From positions 14,262,001 to 14,326,000 of the forward strand of contig NW_024704742.1 in NCBI RefSeq assembly GCF_018977255.1: a stretch of DNA of 64,000 bases, in the 5' to 3' direction. The notes under the pieces are model-generated. The model was not told the origin of the DNA. It did no database searches and was given only the letters and a program-made list of their open reading frames with translations. Below, piece by piece: positions 38,873 to 62,695 of this stretch; position 1 is the stretch's first letter; the number at the start of each line of letters is the position of its first letter. The stretch is from Callorhinchus milii (Eukaryota). The translations under genes were made by a program, and so were the position numbers.

Positions 38873-39123
38873 CGACCTGGGTTAGATTCCCGGCAGGGTG
38901 AAACCTAGGGCAAGTTTCCTTACTCCACTCGCCTGATAATAATCCCTCAAAAAAAAAAAAAATTGGTCATTTCAATCCACGACTGTTTGTGGGACATTGC
39001 TGTGCGCAATTGGCTGTCGCATTTCGCCCACAAATACAGTCAATTCACTTTACAGTCTATTCTGTGAAGCGCTTTGAGTTGTCTGGAAGACGTGAAAATA
39101 TCAAAGCAAGGATTATTATTATA
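38873..39123 (+). mobile_element. 5'-truncated copy of the tRNA-derived SINE
   Basis: gggcaagtttccttactccac through aaggattattatt. Confidence 0.85.
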
Positions 39124-51385: not shown

Positions 51386-51699
51386 GGAGTCCTGTAGCGC
51401 TTTGCAAGTGAGAGACCTGAGTTCAATTCCAGGCAGAGGGCGAAACCTTGGGCAAGTTTCCTTACTCCACACGCCTAATAATAATCCCTCCAAAACCAAA
51501 AACAATAATAAAATTGGTCATTTTCAATCTACGACCGTTTGTGGGACATTGCTGTGCGCAATTGGCTGCCGCATTCGTCCACAAATATACAGTCAATTCA
51601 CTTTTCAGTATATTCTGTGAAGCGCTTTGGGACGTCTAGAAGACATGAAAAGCGCTATGTCAAATGCAAGGATTATTATATTATCGTTATTATTATTAT
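51386..51699 (+). mobile_element. tRNA-derived SINE with an 18-bp deletion removing most of the A box
   Basis: cctgtagc^gctttgcaag versus cctgtagctcagtggttagagcactcgctttgcaag at 24071. Confidence 0.9.
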
Positions 51700-55525: not shown

Positions 55526-58500
55526 CAGGAATGATTTGGATACTGAGGGCGTGCAAGGCTTATTATTATTTGCCGGAGGGCTGTGTCGCGACCTCCTGCT
55601 CTGCTTCCCGCTCTATCCTGTGACAGGAGAGGGCAGGAAGTCAAAATGCAGCCCTCCAATAGACGAGAGGCATCTGTGACATATCTAACCATGTGCGCCC
55701 AAATCCTGCTGAGCACTGGCACCAGTCACACTGCCTCCTTGTGTCCCGGGAGAGCCTATGCCTAACTCATCACTGCGGATGACTTAGGAGGAGTTTACTG
55801 TTTACAATTACCACACTTCACAATACTTTGATGACATGCTAAGGTGCTTTATCAAATATAAGCATTTCGATTCAGTTGCTGGGCTCAGGAGGGTAGTATA
55901 TCACACAGTACAGGGAGTGAGACCTGTGTTACTAATGTTTGGTACGTGTGATGTATTGTTGGGTTTCTGATTTTACTTGGTAAAAAAATTCAAATTTTAA
56001 GTAACAAATTCCCATTGTAATACATCATTTTTATATTTTCTATTATGCCTTGAACTACAAAGAGTCAACTTCTGAGTCATAAAGTTGCCACGAATATCAC
56101 TTCCTACATATTTGCGCTATGTGTAGGGTGTGTGATGCTTATATGTTGAGGTGGTGCCTGTGCACACTCACTGTGCAGGAAGTGATGTTCCTGGCAACCT
56201 TATAACATAGAAATTGGCCATTTTTGTAGCTACAAACATCTTTTAACAAAAGCAACAAGGTATAATAAACATCGATGTTCATCTAAATTTGAAAAACAAA
56301 GCTCAAAATCAGGCAAGTCTATCTGTGGGCAAGAATGGATTTGGCTTTGTTTCCAGCTCACTGTTCTCACTGTGTAAAAGCAGTGTCGGAGAAGCTGAGG
56401 GATATTTCACAATGTCATTTGAATTTTTAATTGGTAAAGCGAGCATTACAACTTGAAGGTTCCCATATGTATCTGTGACTGCAGTGACATATTGTGGCGC
56501 TTGTGTGTTAACAACTTGGCAAACAGACTGTTTTTTTCCCCGTTTTCTGTGATACAAATCTTTAAAAAGTTACACATCCTGTTGACAGCTGTGGGCCTGT
56601 GCTGCATTGCCAGATGGATCATTTGCTGGTGGTGTGGAGATGATAGCTGACAGATGAAGACAGCACCGTCTTGTCAGCTGAGGGTGGGAGTCAGAGGTGA
56701 AAAGATTGTGAAATCAAATCACAATGCTGGAAGGAAGTCTCTGCTCTTCACAAGCTGTGTAATAAATCAAGAACTTGCATTTTAGTAGCTCCTTACATGG
56801 CAAAAAAAATCTCAAAGCACTTTACAGTAATTATTGGCAAGTGCAATGACTGTTTAAGTGCTCCAAGACGCTACTCGCTTGAAGGGCACTATATAAATGC
56901 AGGTTGTTGTTTTGGGTAGACTATCACTACACAATACAACAACAACTTGCATTTATATAGTGTGCTTCACGTGGGGTAGCATCCCGGAACAATAATCAAA
57001 ATCATACTAACAGCCATGGGCTGTTTCACGTCCAGCTGAACAGAGGAATGAAGCATGTTTTAATATCTCATTCTAAAGAATGACACATTCGCTATATAAA
57101 CCTCCTCCAGGCCAATCCTTAGACAATGAGCCCATGTTCCAACATGGAGCTTGAACTTACAATCTTTTGATCTAGACAGAGATTGCGTTGGAGTTTTGAA
57201 AAATAGGTGCCATGTATGTAATTCGTACATCCTAAATGATCATACATAATATGGAACAATCAACTCACATGTTTTATTTGGGCTCTCCCCCAAGATCTCT
57301 CAATCAGAACTCAATGAAACATGCCGTTTGATTGGTCTGTGATATGCATGATCATCTGAGACAGTCAGATACATGAGAAGATAAAAAACTTTGACTGAGA
57401 AGCGTTGAATTTTTTGTAATTGCATAATTTATTTACATAGTGGAATTTAACATTCCTAATAATATTCTTTTCATTTTGTATAGCATCTCTCATGTTGGAA
57501 GGATGTCTCAAAGTACTTCAGTGGATATGCTGTAAAGTCTATCAATTGTGTTGTAGGCGAATTTTGCTATACTTCTTAAAGGGAATTTGTAACAAGGAAT
57601 CCGAGTCACACAAATGCAGACTCTTTCTGGTAACTGGAAATATGTCATTCCAAGCCACAGGAACGTCAACTCTGACTCAACCTACTTACGAAATAGAGAA
57701 CCCACAGGTCGATAGATTTTGATGGGATTCCTTACTAAGAATTAAAAGAATTAGACTCCGCTATTCCATAACTGTGCAACATTTCGTGAGCAAAATGGGT
57801 ATAATTTGATGGGCAAATGAAACCAATTATTTGTAACAAGCAGATTTCAGAAATCTCTTGACAATTGCGAGAAAATAATTGAGAGCATCTGCACTATCAA
57901 ATTCAGTTGGCTAAAGTTTGAGGAATTCTTGGTGCTTAGAGTTGTATTGTTAAATTGAAATTGTAGGGACAGGATCTGTCTGTAGGAATTGTCTGCATTC
58001 ATTACATATTTCTTTCTTCTGTGAAACAAGTTGAAAATGACAAAGACCTAAAAGAAAGAGCCAGAAAATGACATGATCTAACCTGGAGGTAACATGTAAG
58101 ACCACAATCAATTTATATTAATCAGTATCATGGTGGTAATAGTATATTTCAGGAGAATTGAGACCTCTCACGAAGTAAAAACAGAAAATGCTGGAAACGC
58201 ACAGAAAATGCTGGAAATGCACATCATATCAATCAGTTTCTGAAAGAGAAAGATAGGTTAACATTTTGGATCTGACCCTTCATCAGAAGGTCATACCTGA
58301 AGCGTCACTCCGTCTTTTAGATGCTGACTGCTCCTTTGTATATAAGAAAAGCAAAAGAGCAGCAGTGTGATATTTTCACAGCAATCTCGGCCTTCACTGC
58401 CTTGTTTTACTTCTGGTCTGATCTCCGCTGATATCTGTCATTGCTAGTTTGGACTCCAATATCCTCGGTTCACTTTCAAGCTCTTCATTCTTCACAGCTT

Positions 58501-59888: not shown

Positions 59889-61454
59889 CCTTTGAAAGAG
59901 CAATCTATCCAATCCTTTACCCCATGCTTTATGTATTTTTTGTAATAACATTTAACAACAGAGAATAATATCACATGTTTTCATTAGGATAGTACCCCTT
60001 AGTACCCCGTTGGCTTCTAAAAAATATAAAAGTTCATAGTCTTTTTCCTCATTTCTCCTGTCCAAGAAACTTGACCTGCTAACAGATATCACTCAGGGTA
60101 AAAACTGTGAAAGGATCCAATTACAGTTCTAATTCACTACTACATAAATCCCTTATTTCACACACCCATGCAACAACAAAATGACATCTATATAGCGTCT
60201 TTCACGTTGGGAGGATGTCACAGGGCACTGGACGTCAAACGCCAAAGTACATTTTTCAGCCTAAGAGCCATATAGGGGTCCTAATTACAGTAGAAAAAGT
60301 CTGAGAAGCTCCTTTCAAACAAGTCAGGGATTGTTGAGAGGAGACAATTTTTAAAAAAAAGGTTTGGACAAAATGCCAGCCAATACTACTATCAAATTGT
60401 GATCATAGCCATTTCGATGCTTTCAGTCTGTTCATGAGCTGTGAAAGGCTGAAACTTCTGGCTAAAGATTACAAAGCAAAACATGTTCACAAAATGGTCC
60501 TTTGCTAGCCTTGACGACAGAATTTGAGGAAGAGTCATTCAAACCAGAAATAATAACCAAAATAATGAAGCGAGAGGTTTGGAGAGGTTTGCTTTGTGTA
60601 CAGAAGGTTGTTATCATGTGGATTCATATATCCAGAAATTTGATAAAGGCAGAATCCATATTAACTTTTAAAATGGATAAATATCTGACTGGAAAAAATA
60701 TAAAGGGGTATTGGAAAAATATAAGAGAATGGGTCTAAACAGATAGCTCTTTCAGACAAATAGCAAAGGCACAATGAGCTGAATGGCCTCCCGTACTCTA
60801 AATTGCTGTAGTTCTAATTCGCAATTGATGGAGCAACATCTGTTTTGTGAATGCTTAATTTTCAACCTCATTACTTACTTTAACCATCGGCCCCTTGAGA
60901 ACTACAGTGCATTGTATAGAATATATATTTTTGGCCTGCATGTGCACTGGAAAATCTGGTTCAATGAAAAGCATTAGTTTGCATTCTGAACTATAATCTG
61001 TCTCAAAGCCTTGACTGCCACCTGTCTGGAACACATGGTATACTAGTTAAAAAAAATCTTCATTGTTTTCTCCATGTTTATACTGTGGCTTTCCAAAGAG
61101 CCTAAATCTCAGTGGTACAGGTATACCTTTCATTATTATGTAGCTTCATACTTTCTCCTATATAATGCCTCAATTGGACCTAAAGTAATGCTAAGGATGC
61201 CAGGACTCAAAATGTTATCTGACACTGTAATGTATTGCTGGAGGTGCCATCTTCAGATCAAACTTAAAATCAAGATCCTAATGCAGTTTCGGTTCAACGA
61301 CCCTTCAGGTCCACGACCTGTTCTGCTAGGTGAACGGGAGTGGGAGTAAGGAAACCTACGCAATGTTTTTCCCTGCCAAGAATCAAACCCATATCACTGC
61401 TGTTTGTGTGGTTATTGTTGGCACAGATTAATTGCTGGGTTTGACATAACAATT

Positions 61455-62025
61455 ATTAAGACCATAAGACCATAAGACATAGGAGCCATTTGGCCTCTCG
61501 AGCCTGCCCCGCCATCTAATAAGATTATGGCTGATCTTCTAACCTAATTCCATTTACCTGCCCTATCCCAATATCCCTTAATCCCTCTATCCTTTGGAAA
61601 TCTATCAATATGTTCAAGGACTGAGCATCTACAGCCTTCTGGGGTAGAGAATTCCACAAATTCACTACCCTCTGAGTGAAGAAATGTTTCCTCAACTCAG
61701 TTCCTTAATCATGAGACTGTGACCCCTAGTTTTAGATTCTTCAACCAGGGGAAACAGTCTTCCGGCATCTATACCCTGTCAGGACCTTTAAAAATCTTAT
61801 AGGTTTCTATATCATCACCTCTAATTCTTCTATATTCTAGAGAATATAGGCCTAGTTTACTCAACCTCTCCTCATAGGCCAACCCCCTCTTCCCAGAAGC
61901 CAACCTAGTGAATCTACGCTGCACCCCCTCTAAGGCGAGTATGTCCTTTCTTAAATAAGGAGACCAAAACTGCACACAATATTCTTGGTACGGTCTCACA
62001 CAACCGCAGCAAGACTTCCCTGTTT
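61455..62025 (-). mobile_element. CR1-clade LINE 3' fragment with (TCTTATGG)n tail
   Basis: Minus ORF RPYQEYCVQFWSPYLRKDILALEGVQRRFTRL; related to the 5215-7079 element. Confidence 0.92.
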
Positions 62026-62289
62026 TGAACAGTCACTTCAAAACAATTAATTATGACGCACTACAAGACGTTTTGATGTAATAAAATAATAAAGCTACGG
62101 GTTTTATTCTTGGCAGGGCAAAACGTTGCGTAGGTTTCCTTACTCCACACTCCCCTGTTCACCCAGCAGAACAGGTCATGGACCCAAAGGGTCATTGAAC
62201 CGAAACGTTGACTCACTTTCCTTTCTCCATAGATGCTGCCTGACCTGTTGAGTGTTCCCAGCAGCTTCTGTTTTTCTTCAAGATTATTG

Positions 62290-62695
62290 CTCTCATCTTT
62301 AATTCCCTCCACGGCCTCACCCCATGCTGCTTCTATGATCTCCTACAACCTGATCGCCCCTGCTGCTCCCTTCACTCAGTAAACACCAGCCATGAAACAT
62401 GTCTTCTGGTCTATGCTTTATATCTACATATATATTTATATGGTCTATGGTTTATGCTTGGCTTTCAGCCAATCTGCACTGCTCTCTGGAATTCCATCCC
62501 TGAGTCACTCCAACTTGTTCCCTCCTCCCCATGTTCAAAGCCTGTCTCAAGACTTACCTCCTTGACTGAGCTTTTGGTCATCTTTTCCTTCTCTATCCTG
62601 TTCAGTTCCCACCCCCAGCTCGGTTACCCAGCGTGAAGGACTTTGAGACGCCGTCCTGATGTGAAAGGAGGTATATAAATGCAAAATGTATTGTA
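62290..62695 (+). mobile_element. Diverged L2 3' fragment
   Basis: ALWNSIPESL peptide remnant and the gtgaaagg...tatataaatgcaa tail. Confidence 0.7.

Follow-up and report, generated by a model that had tools for sequence, protein, structure and literature searches.

An inverted pair of SINE/Penelope-type mosaics at a single locus of Callorhinchus milii

Introduction

Near the end of a 64,000-nucleotide stretch of the Callorhinchus milii genome (RefSeq assembly GCF_018977255.1, contig NW_024704742.1, positions 14,262,001 to 14,326,000 of the forward strand; hereafter the window, whose own coordinates are used throughout), two similar sequences face each other in inverted orientation. Each joins part of a tRNA-derived SINE to a segment that resembles the end of a Penelope-like element (PLE). 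Is this a new family of mobile elements, a ribozyme-bearing hybrid, or an accident of one place in the genome? We conclude, with a probability of roughly 0.9, that the locus is a dead, locus-specific mosaic, neither a mobile family nor a ribozyme, and that each arm consists of a 71-bp SINE piece followed by a 5'-truncated PLE-type terminal unit.

Results

The two arms (61286-61393 and 62096-62206) lie 702 bp apart and are identical in 99 of the 111 columns of a gapped alignment (89.2%); the mismatches are 7 transitions and 2 transversions, and 3 columns hold gaps. A repeat search recovers the same pair as two blocks, 61286-61338/62154-62206 (89% complementary) and 61343-61393/62096-62146 (92%). 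In the whole-genome search the partner arm is found with an E value of 6.8e-32, so the pairing is not due to chance. The first-pass annotation had described an inverted pair of about 105 bp whose arms both start at GGGTT; both statements hold, and 3 further bases (TAY) before GGGTT are common to the two arms. Each arm is composed of an internal SINE piece, a short mosaic and the front of an abundant repeat unit of about 92-130 nt (Table 1). The orientation is head-to-head, as in normal pairs of this unit. On the 61286 side the left arm ends exactly past GAAAC and lacks the 3' end of the unit, and a long or short form is not scorable there. Since the arms are about as alike (89%) as the unit and its genomic relatives (90-95%), the duplication is roughly as old as the insertion.

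Table 1. Components of the locus in window coordinates
Feature	Coordinates	Strand	Description
Left flank, fragment of older repeat family R1	61220..61279	+	3 other genomic copies, 80-86%, run on past the local stop
Left arm, outer end	61286..61305	-	Reverse complement of AAGGGTCGTTGAACCGAAAC, which in the PLE-type unit covers the bulged A, helix II and GAAAC
Left arm, junction mosaic	61306..61322	-	Reverse complement of AACA and of a helix-II segment present in an extra copy, GGTCGTGGACCTG; 13/15 bases match a normal copy
Left arm, SINE piece	61323..61393	-	Runs backward from CAGCAG (SINE position 124) to the B box GGGTT (position 54), then the 3 bases common to both arms
Middle of much older SINE-like remnant O	61394..61452	+	Score 17 vs shuffle maximum 15 against SINE positions 216-286; collinear with L075
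LINE-like element, 5'-truncated 3' fragment	61453..62021	-	Ends in ACCATAAG-type short repeats; inserted into remnant O
3' part of remnant O, A/T-rich end	62022..62095	+	Borderline score, 15 vs shuffle maximum 15; collinear with L075
Right arm, SINE piece	62096..62169	+	TAC, then SINE positions 54-124, from the B box GGGTT as far as CAGCAG; A box absent
Right arm, junction mosaic	62167..62188	+	CAGAACA (overlapping the last CAG of the SINE), then an extra tandem helix-II copy, GGTCATGGACCCAAA, at 62174-62188
Right arm, PLE-type terminal unit, short form	62187..62278	+	Bulged A (AAGGGTCATTGAACCGAAACGTTGAC...) to ...CTTCTGTTTTTCTT; no CUGAYGA box; 90-95% identity to genomic copies; 3' limit uncertain by 2-3 bases
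Right flank, 5'-cut copy of old repeat family R2	62277..62391	+	72-81% identity; 3 other copies extend upstream of TTCAAGATT

A DNA transposon of the foldback or miniature type, with terminal inverted repeats some 110 bp long, could likewise account for inverted arms around 702 bp. We find this hardly credible. The 70-nt junction query described below finds the structure to be unique in the genome, there is no target duplication at the outer arm ends (left GCA/GTTTCGG, right CCGAAAC/GTTGAC), the right arm passes without a break into the PLE-type unit, and the interior consists of unrelated old repeats.

The SINE family that supplied the heads of the arms is abundant and tRNA-derived, with at least 296 genomic candidates. 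Against a consensus formed as the majority of 23 genomic copies, the right arm (62099-62169) corresponds to positions 54-124 at 88.7% identity and the left arm (61398-61323) to positions 46-124 at 82.3%, which bears out the early reading of the heads as a piece of the local tRNA-SINE from the B box onward. The first 53 SINE bases are absent and the arms start with the B box at position 54, so that both are without an A box. Past ...CAGCAG, 26 of 28 ordinary SINE copies run on into TAAGTAGG-like sequence, and both local arms diverge from it. The rest of the SINE (positions 125-376) was not found beyond the PLE-type unit at this locus.

The 17-bp "linker" at the junction proved not to be random filler: it consists of CAGAACA and, after it, helix II copied one extra time. 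In the right arm this copy matches a normal one at 14 of 15 bases, a score reached by none of 2000 shuffles. CAGAACA is the reverse complement of TGTTCTG, the usual 5' end of the PLE-type unit, and the arrangement ...TCAGAAC-A/G-GGTCATGGACC... also occurs at the centres of head-to-head pairs at three other loci (L087, L088 and L089).

Does the junction occur anywhere else? A 70-nt query across it yielded 2 candidates in the 0.99-Gb genome, and both are the local arms. A 190-nt query, for which 40 of 1709 candidates were scored, gave 54 matches, and only those at the 2 local places cover head and junction together; with a 95-nt head query all 38 non-local matches stop at or before query position 76. 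A 20-nt junction pattern, allowing up to 2 mismatches, has 17 sites genome-wide (1 for the control), 15 of them non-local; no SINE lies upstream of the pattern at any of the 10 non-local sites examined. The first-pass annotation had proposed a count of independent copies and had listed occurrence at this locus only as the first outcome that would speak against its reading, and this is the outcome that we obtained. Among the copies read, the PLE-type unit had a SINE piece at its 5' end in two cases, this locus and L008, which is too few to speak of an excess.

These results bear on the idea, put forward from the window alone, that the arms are a hybrid SINE whose 3' module has been swapped. If so, a retrotransposing element that combines the head of a tRNA-SINE with a 3' module of Penelope type would be present here in two copies. 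The right arm does end at the normal short 3' end of the unit family, and SINE-like elements with hammerheads are known elsewhere, for example Sm-alpha of Schistosoma (Ferbeyre et al. 1998, cited in PMC4209133). Nevertheless, the junction was found only in the two local arms, which are inverted neighbours rather than dispersed copies. Both arms begin at the B box, so that half of the polymerase III promoter, the part with the A box, is lost; the 3' end of the unit is missing from the left arm, and there is no target-site duplication. We therefore regard a hybrid SINE as very improbable. In Sm-alpha and the non-LTR retrozymes, too, a hammerhead motif is paired with a non-autonomous retroelement of short length; unlike them, the chimera is not a multi-copy element and occurs once, and whereas retrozymes are tandem, the units discussed next were never in direct tandem in 28 loci. 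Non-LTR retrozymes are reported from the one cartilaginous fish sampled, according to a preprint (bioRxiv 10.64898/2026.07.22.740005).

The nature of the tail becomes clear from its relatives. Normal copies of the unit share the motif CTGAYG-A-A-GGGTC-RTG-GACCC-GAAAC-GTT, a minimal hammerhead (CUGAYGA-A-GGGUC..GACCC-GAAAC-GUU) with a bulged or unpaired base after A9, a G10.1-C11.1 pair, a 5-bp helix II and GAAA, followed by a palindromic C15.2-G16.2, no loop 3 and a short helix I (AGUU/GACU). We collected 42 unit copies in 28 loci (4 partial); 20 of the copies have an intact box, 26 an intact GAAAC and 16 both. The units vary in 5' truncation, and one that begins at CTGATGA (locus L017) has an exact 10-bp target duplication. 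Head-to-head, 5'-truncated partners were detected by script in 11 of the 28 loci, or 12 counting L023. In all 11 pairs only one arm carries a 34-nt tail extension, giving two alternative 3' ends 34 nt apart; among units scored as solo, 9 were long and 11 short, and one of each makes up the L023 pair. No direct tandem units were found in the 28 loci, where all are solo or head-to-head.

Endonuclease-positive PLE insertion units are described by Craig et al. 2021 (PMC8557442) and Frangieh et al. 2024 (PMC11167929) as having a pseudo-LTR with a hammerhead and, next to it, an inverted copy truncated at its 5' end, together with a tail of 30-40 bp on one end. The normal units resemble them in their variable 5' truncation, target duplications, head-to-head partners and one-arm extension. 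Their core features, and their occurrence mostly singly or as opposite-strand pairs, likewise agree with the minimal hammerheads of metazoan PLE pseudo-LTRs, by the criteria set out in Cervera & de la Pena 2014 (PMC4209133). Judged by predicted structure, these copies document that an abundant short unit of the C. milii genome carries all the signatures of PLE ends, namely a minimal hammerhead, an inverted partner and a one-sided 34-nt tail. The early description of the tail as Penelope-like and hammerhead-like was thus right as to kind, normal family copies having the published hallmarks, but the CUGANGA box that it named is absent from the local arms. A likeness to 58175-58334, suggested at the same time, was confirmed on the minus strand, where 58160-58292 aligns with the whole normal unit (score 34 vs a shuffle maximum of 19) despite being missed by BLAST at E<=1e-3; the plus-strand half is borderline (17 vs 18).

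We found no autonomous PLE that carries the unit, and walking upstream of it added no more than about 190-250 bp, all further repeat sequence. A genome-wide search for GIY-YIG domains gave 2 matches among 118 candidates, in related ORF remnants (L078 and L079), the second of which also has a weak RVT_1 match below the cut-off. The PLE-type unit is not present within the 4.5-kb loci of either.

Could the local copies themselves be hammerhead ribozymes, active or merely degenerate? The right arm keeps GAAAC, helix II and the GUU site. However, both arms lack the C3-A9 box (CUGAYGA). It had been called degenerate because it was looked for in the wrong place: the true box lies directly upstream of AAGGGTC and has been replaced in both arms, and the stretch taken for it (ctgacctgttgag) is downstream of GAAAC, in the region that normal copies have beyond the cleavage site. 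On the sequence as it stands, neither local arm is predicted to be able to form a hammerhead core. The covariance check that had been suggested gave no Rfam hammerhead match in the window at the gathering score, nor in 61000-62600 at E<=10. The same models found nothing in 15 normal loci (E<=1) or in a 151-nt normal copy (E<=10), so Rfam is no judge of this motif class. By the account in PMC4209133, motifs that have no helix III can be expected to escape these models; the paper also describes the published minimal hammerheads as cleaving poorly and only as dimers. The case here differs from those ribozymes in that the local arms lack the CUGAYGA box and the Rfam models are silent even on normal copies. 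Taken together, we give next to no credence to ribozymes at this locus, whether active or degenerate.

The spacer and the flanks are patchworks of older repeats. Apart from itself, 61394..61452 has one match in the genome, at L075, and 62022..62095 occurs at a single place. A young SINE as the source of the spacer was ruled out, given its weak similarity to the consensus, its uniqueness and its collinearity with the old element L075. The LINE-like fragment that splits remnant O belongs to an abundant family (4184 first-look candidates); 39 scored full-length matches other than itself are 84-87% identical, and 11 of 11 copies examined extend past the equivalent of 62021. On the left, six bases (61280-61285) lie between R1 and the arm, and no further part of R1 turned up between 58000 and the end of the window. 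TCAAGAT appears at both outer ends, but a target-site duplication of about 15 bp was rejected there, the motif being native to the two different flank repeat families. Comparison of the flanks with other R1 and R2 copies gave no target-site duplication around the block.

Discussion

How did a SINE piece come to sit at the front of two inverted PLE-type units? We think it somewhat probable that a single PLE-type insertion at the A/T-rich end of remnant O gave rise to the block, with the LINE-like fragment splitting the spacer later. The sequence shows how the arms are built, that the junction is unique, that the unit family bears its hallmarks and that the box is missing; the following order of events and template jumps we infer. 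Reverse transcription would have begun at the short 3' start site of the unit and proceeded toward the hammerhead, where slippage may have caused the helix-II hairpin to be copied again. A short strand flip, like those at the centres of ordinary head-to-head pairs, would then have produced CAGAACA, and would have been followed either by a jump onto SINE RNA through CAG microhomology or by joining to a resident SINE end. Resolution of the double-strand cut could have created the usual inverted partial partner; because that partner would have been templated by the already chimeric strand, the junction would be common to both arms. Later, the LINE-like fragment would have inserted into the spacer, and the outer part of the left arm would have been deleted along with the 3' part of R1.

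The extra helix-II copy and the CAGAACA flip, read as products of reverse transcription, argue for such a single PLE-type event, as do the uniqueness of the junction, the PLE hallmarks of the unit family and the similar ages of duplication and insertion. In addition, about 40% of the units have a partner, and thus a PLE-made partner is far likelier beforehand than an unrelated 111-bp inverted duplication at exactly this point.

Several features of the locus count against a single event. None of the 11-12 ordinary pairs examined repeats non-PLE sequence in both arms, and a target-site duplication flanking the block is missing. A PLE-made partner should possess the 3' end of the unit, which the left arm lacks, and a later deletion has to be assumed. 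The spacer (61394-61452 and 62022-62095) looks old and resident, and simple snap-back or dual priming puts no such DNA there. The absence from our searches of an autonomous PLE with this unit, and the failure of the Rfam hammerhead models to score anything, count in the same direction. In these respects the locus is also unlike known PLE insertion units: SINE sequence, which is foreign to PLEs, is present in both arms, the 3' end is missing on the left, the spacer resembles old resident DNA, and our searches linked no RT or GIY-YIG reading frame to the unit.

Alternatively, a solo PLE unit might have inserted in or beside a resident 5'-truncated SINE, and an unrelated DNA-level rearrangement might have followed. 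A template switch during replication, or repair of a double-strand break with templated synthesis, would much later have copied about 111 bp over the junction, inverted, to a place 136 bp upstream, and parts of O and R1 would have been deleted. Such a history suits a locus that is a patchwork of cut repeats (R1 at 61279, O without its 5' part, R2 at 62277), a spacer of unique old DNA and a block without target-site duplication, and the 3 bases (TAY) that the arms share beyond SINE homology look as if copied from a finished right-hand context. However, we saw no microhomology, by eye, at either end of the left arm; the duplication must have hit by chance the 5' part of a unit that has inverted partners in about 40% of its insertions; and extra deletions are needed to explain why SINE positions 125-376 do not resume beyond the unit. 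We consider this history unlikely, but deserving of more weight than a hybrid SINE, a DNA transposon or a ribozyme.

Template switching by the reverse transcriptases of retroelements is known to generate chimeric retrocopies, such as the U6/L1 chimeras of mammals. Tentatively, and only as one possibility within a single PLE-type insertion, the junction may be the fossil of a Penelope-type reverse transcriptase that ran off the 5' end of its own RNA, recopied the hairpin, made a 7-nt strand flip and jumped by CAG microhomology onto SINE RNA before the inverted partner was formed. As in U6/L1 chimeras, a transcript in the same orientation is joined to the 5' end of a retroelement at a short CAG microhomology. 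Unlike in those chimeras, the enzyme would be of the PLE type, the second piece is internal (SINE positions 54-124) and does not reach the 5' end of the RNA, and the template switch itself is part of our reconstruction. Judged by titles and abstracts, none of the 7 papers that a search on Penelope-like elements, SINEs and template switching listed deals with chimeras of this kind.

The locus is ordinary and carries little weight in itself: it is a decayed one-off mosaic amid repeat-rich DNA. Its analysis removes a tempting false lead, the supposed new family of SINE/Penelope hybrids. If the jump onto SINE RNA did take place, it would show PLE machinery building chimeric retrocopies with cellular or SINE RNAs and would suggest a possible birth route for SINE-like elements that bear hammerheads.

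Two minor observations concern the arms and their relatives. R1 is cut at the same point as the left arm, which fits a later deletion and is no proof of it. In ordinary head-to-head pairs filler can be found, for example at L028, in single copy only. Lastly, the PLE signatures of the unit agree with the two sites at which reverse transcription of an Anolis element has been seen to start in vitro.

The arms and their SINE piece

The local inverted pair is a one-off mosaic, in which an internal piece of a SINE (the head) is joined to an abundant short PLE-type terminal repeat (the unit, or tail). The two arms are 702 bp apart and align, with gaps, as a single pair of 111 columns with 99 matches, 7 transitions, 2 transversions and 3 gap columns. 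An inverted-repeat search of the window gives two pairs of sub-arms (61286-61338/62154-62206 at 89% and 61343-61393/62096-62146 at 92%), and when the 991.5-Mb assembly that contains the window is searched, the partner arm comes up at E 6.8e-32, which confirms the inverted repeat claimed in the first-pass annotation.

Coordinates of the features discussed (L-coordinates without a contig are internal to the locus)
Feature	Position	Strand	Remarks
Left arm	61286-61393	minus	
Right arm	62096-62206	plus	
SINE piece, left arm	61398-61323		SINE positions 46-124, 82.3% (consensus alignment)
SINE piece, right arm	62099-62169		SINE positions 54-124, 88.7% (consensus alignment)
Unit, right arm	62187-62278/85		sharp limits, 90-95% identical to relatives
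LINE-like 3' fragment	61453-62021	minus	5'-truncated; abundant family, at least 4184 candidates
Old SINE-like remnant O	61394-61452 + 62022-62095		split by the LINE-like fragment
Deletion-bearing SINE copies	38874-39122; 51398-51684		without consensus positions 110-173
Diverged long-form unit copy	58160-58292	minus	intact TTCTGATGAAGGGTC; duplicated GAAAATGCTGGAAA stretch
Solo short unit	L017 1491-1616		starts exactly at CTGATGA
Head-to-head pair loci	L003, L007, L009, L010, L013, L015, L018, L019, L024, L025, L028 (+ L023)		
GIY-YIG match L078	G000:C1:120031400-120035900	minus	broken reading frame
GIY-YIG match L079	G000:C12:9525900-9530400	minus	broken frame; weak RVT_1 match below cut-off
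Pair centre L089	G000:C2:62728361-62728660		
Unit beside SINE pieces	L008 1340-1780		

A 95-nt head query gave at least 296 first-look candidates; among the best 40 scored, the 38 non-local matches are 84-91% identical and none reaches outside query positions 3-76. Three SINE copies within the window have a head that Rfam annotates as tRNA, and a majority consensus made from 23 copies maps onto these three sites. The relatives of the head are copies of a tRNA-derived SINE. The placement on the consensus shows that each arm contains an internal SINE piece that starts at the B box (GGGTT), ends at ...CAGCAG and lacks the A-box half. TAAGTAGG-like sequence follows CAGCAG in 26 of 28 ordinary SINE copies, the remaining two having internal deletions; the local arms have no such continuation.

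The segment around CTGTTCACCCAGCAG, which had been described as missing from some local SINEs, is indeed missing from two window copies and is common genome-wide. These two copies represent a deletion subfamily, which is why the first-pass annotation had a single local copy with this central segment.

The unit and its hammerhead motif

The true start of the unit is about 9 bases upstream of 62187. A 190-nt tail query, which also contained head sequence, gave 1709 first-look candidates, and we read 42 copies (4 partial) in 28 loci. Normal copies have the form (G)TTCTGAYG-A-A-GGGTC-RTG-GACCC-GAAAC-GTT-GACTCAC... Read as a hammerhead, this supplies the CUGAYGA box, a single unpaired A, a helix II of 5 bp opening with G10.1-C11.1, then GAAA, a C15.2-G16.2 palindrome that lacks loop 3, and U16.1 and U17; helix I is 4 bp (AGUU/GACU) in normal copies with upstream sequence present. 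Of the 42 copies, 20 keep the box intact, 26 keep GAAAC and 16 keep both. Normal copies thus share the features that Cervera and de la Pena list for minimal hammerheads in PLE pseudo-LTRs: a base separating positions 9 and 10.1, conservation of G10.1-C11.1, a palindromic 15.2-16.2, a short helix I and mostly single motifs (PMC4209133). The same paper describes some opposite-strand pairs, spaced by 100-700 bp.

Rfam hammerhead models gave no match in the window; scans with a cut-off of E<=10 on 61000-62600 and on one 151-nt normal copy, and of E<=1 on 15 normal loci, were likewise empty. These models do not see the minimal-hammerhead class of the unit. Because they are blind to it, the putative hammerhead is identified by descriptor features and not by covariance-model score.

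The CUGAYGA box, thought at first to be degenerate here, is absent from both local arms, and the motif that had been taken for it, ctgacctgttgag, lies within the part after the cleavage site in normal copies. Neither arm is predicted to be able to form a hammerhead core, and we saw no evidence of any function for either arm.

A second arrangement lies at 58160-58345, where the diverged minus-strand copy stands head to head with a plus-strand half of weak, borderline similarity. The resemblance noted earlier between this region and the tail therefore stands for the minus-strand copy and is borderline only for the other half.

The unit as an insertion

The unit is a discrete insertion: the clean solo copy in L017 has the 10-bp target duplication TGAAAGTATT on both sides, without a mismatch. 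The 5' ends of many solo copies cluster within a few bases of the CTGATGA start. Unit 5' ends are variable, some copies reaching 35 to ~250 bp further upstream, and the sequence they reach into is also of high copy number (2095 candidates). The 3' end comes in two forms, ...CTTCTGTTTTTGTT and one 34 nt longer, in which the extension opens with TCAGATTTCCAGCATCTGCAG. Head-to-head pairs occur in 11 of the 28 loci, or 12 if L023 is counted. The 34-nt extension is on exactly one arm in all 11 pairs found by script, and L023 is alike; solo copies, by the script, number 20, of which 9 are long and 11 short, L023 contributing one of each.

The one-arm-only extension fits the "tail at one end only" published for PLEs (PMC8557442), and suggests that within a pair the two start sites of reverse transcription are used in an asymmetric way. 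The two 3' ends match the paired start sites of an Anolis PLE, which in vitro has two adjacent internal reverse-transcription start sites and an endonuclease that cuts both strands of A/T-rich DNA (PMC11167929). Only 2 of 118 candidates genome-wide are GIY-YIG matches (L078 and L079). Their frames are related (88-92% identical), the unit is absent from both 4.5-kb loci, and the two are probably what is left of an autonomous element from a different Penelope-like family. This search thus gave no link between the unit and an autonomous element.

The junction

The order at the junction is SINE ...CCCAGCAG, then AACA, GGTCATGGACCCAAA and AAGGGTCATTGAACCGAAAC... GGTCATGGACCCAAA duplicates the helix-II segment, 14 of its 15 bases agreeing with a normal copy, a score reached by none of 2000 shuffles. 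A 20-nt junction word, allowing up to 2 mismatches, has 17 sites versus 1 for the control. Ten of the 15 non-local sites were fetched, and none has SINE sequence upstream: five are one unrelated repeat family, one is an unrelated single sequence, and the other four each mark the centre of a head-to-head PLE pair. Three of these centres (L087, L088 and L089) read ...TCAGAAC-A/G-GGTCATGGACC..., the TCAGAAC motif being the usual 5' end of the unit reverse-complemented, with helix II of the opposite arm directly after it. Because these centres share the motif, we take the local CAGAACA-GGTCATGGACC to be a PLE-type pair-centre signature. In L089, several short inverted and direct helix-II hairpin pieces precede the full unit, which suggests repeated strand switching at this hairpin.

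A 70-nt junction query of the genome gave two candidates, the two local arms, and no other place crosses the junction among the candidates scored with the 190-nt and 95-nt queries. The genome search scored the best candidates and skipped very common words, so this uniqueness is strong evidence and not an exhaustive census. The first-pass annotation was largely right in its description of a SINE head fused to a hammerhead-like tail; its proposal of a SINE with a swapped 3' module does not survive. A hybrid SINE that retrotransposes would need an A box, target duplications and dispersed copies that share the junction; we looked for all three and found none. In these searches the join is confined to this locus, the outcome that the annotation had itself set against its proposal.

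Origin of the mosaic

We favour an origin of the pair in a single PLE-type insertion, at a probability of roughly 60%, because the unit family makes an inverted partner in ~40% of insertions, because the junction bears PLE-typical marks of slippage and strand flipping, and because the divergence between the arms (89% alike) is about that between the unit and its relatives. The main rival, in which a solo unit inserted and an unrelated DNA-level event then made the inverted duplication, seems to us less likely. The single event is weakened, however, in that none of the ordinary pairs examined repeats non-PLE sequence in both arms, and in that the left arm stops at GAAAC without a 3' end, which obliges us to postulate a later deletion. 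The older repeat R1 of the left flank stops at 61279, and its being cut at the same point fits such a deletion; we did not find its continuation between 58000 and the window end. On the right, the old repeat R2 starts at 62277 with its 5' side cut. The heptamer TCAAGAT adjoins both outer ends of the pair. We rejected it as a target duplication, since each of the two flank repeat families carries the heptamer in its own right; there is thus no target duplication at the pair.

The single event is also weakened by old, resident-looking DNA between the arms. These 702 bp are not part of the repeat. All 11 copies examined of the LINE-like family run on past the local break. The local fragment has a short ACCATAAG-type repeat as its 3' terminus, as in CR1- or L2-like LINEs. 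The arms were ~136 bp apart before this insertion. Remnant O, which the fragment splits, is essentially unique in the genome and collinear with one other old copy, L075; its similarity to SINE positions 216-286 is weak (score 17 versus a shuffle maximum of 15), and its right half is borderline (15 versus 15).

The SINE piece could have been copied from SINE RNA by a template jump, as its being cut at both ends, with the remainder absent beyond the unit, would indicate; SINEs are dense here, however, and among the units read only L008 otherwise has a 5' SINE piece. Alternatively, the piece could be the resident upstream end of the target, joined through CAG microhomology; CAGAACA and the last CAG of the SINE overlap by 3 bases. 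In L008, the unit 5' end adjoins SINE positions 1-19 in the same orientation, and the reverse complement of a SINE head lies just downstream. This locus is thus a second case of a unit surrounded by SINE fragments, and may reflect chance in SINE-dense DNA.
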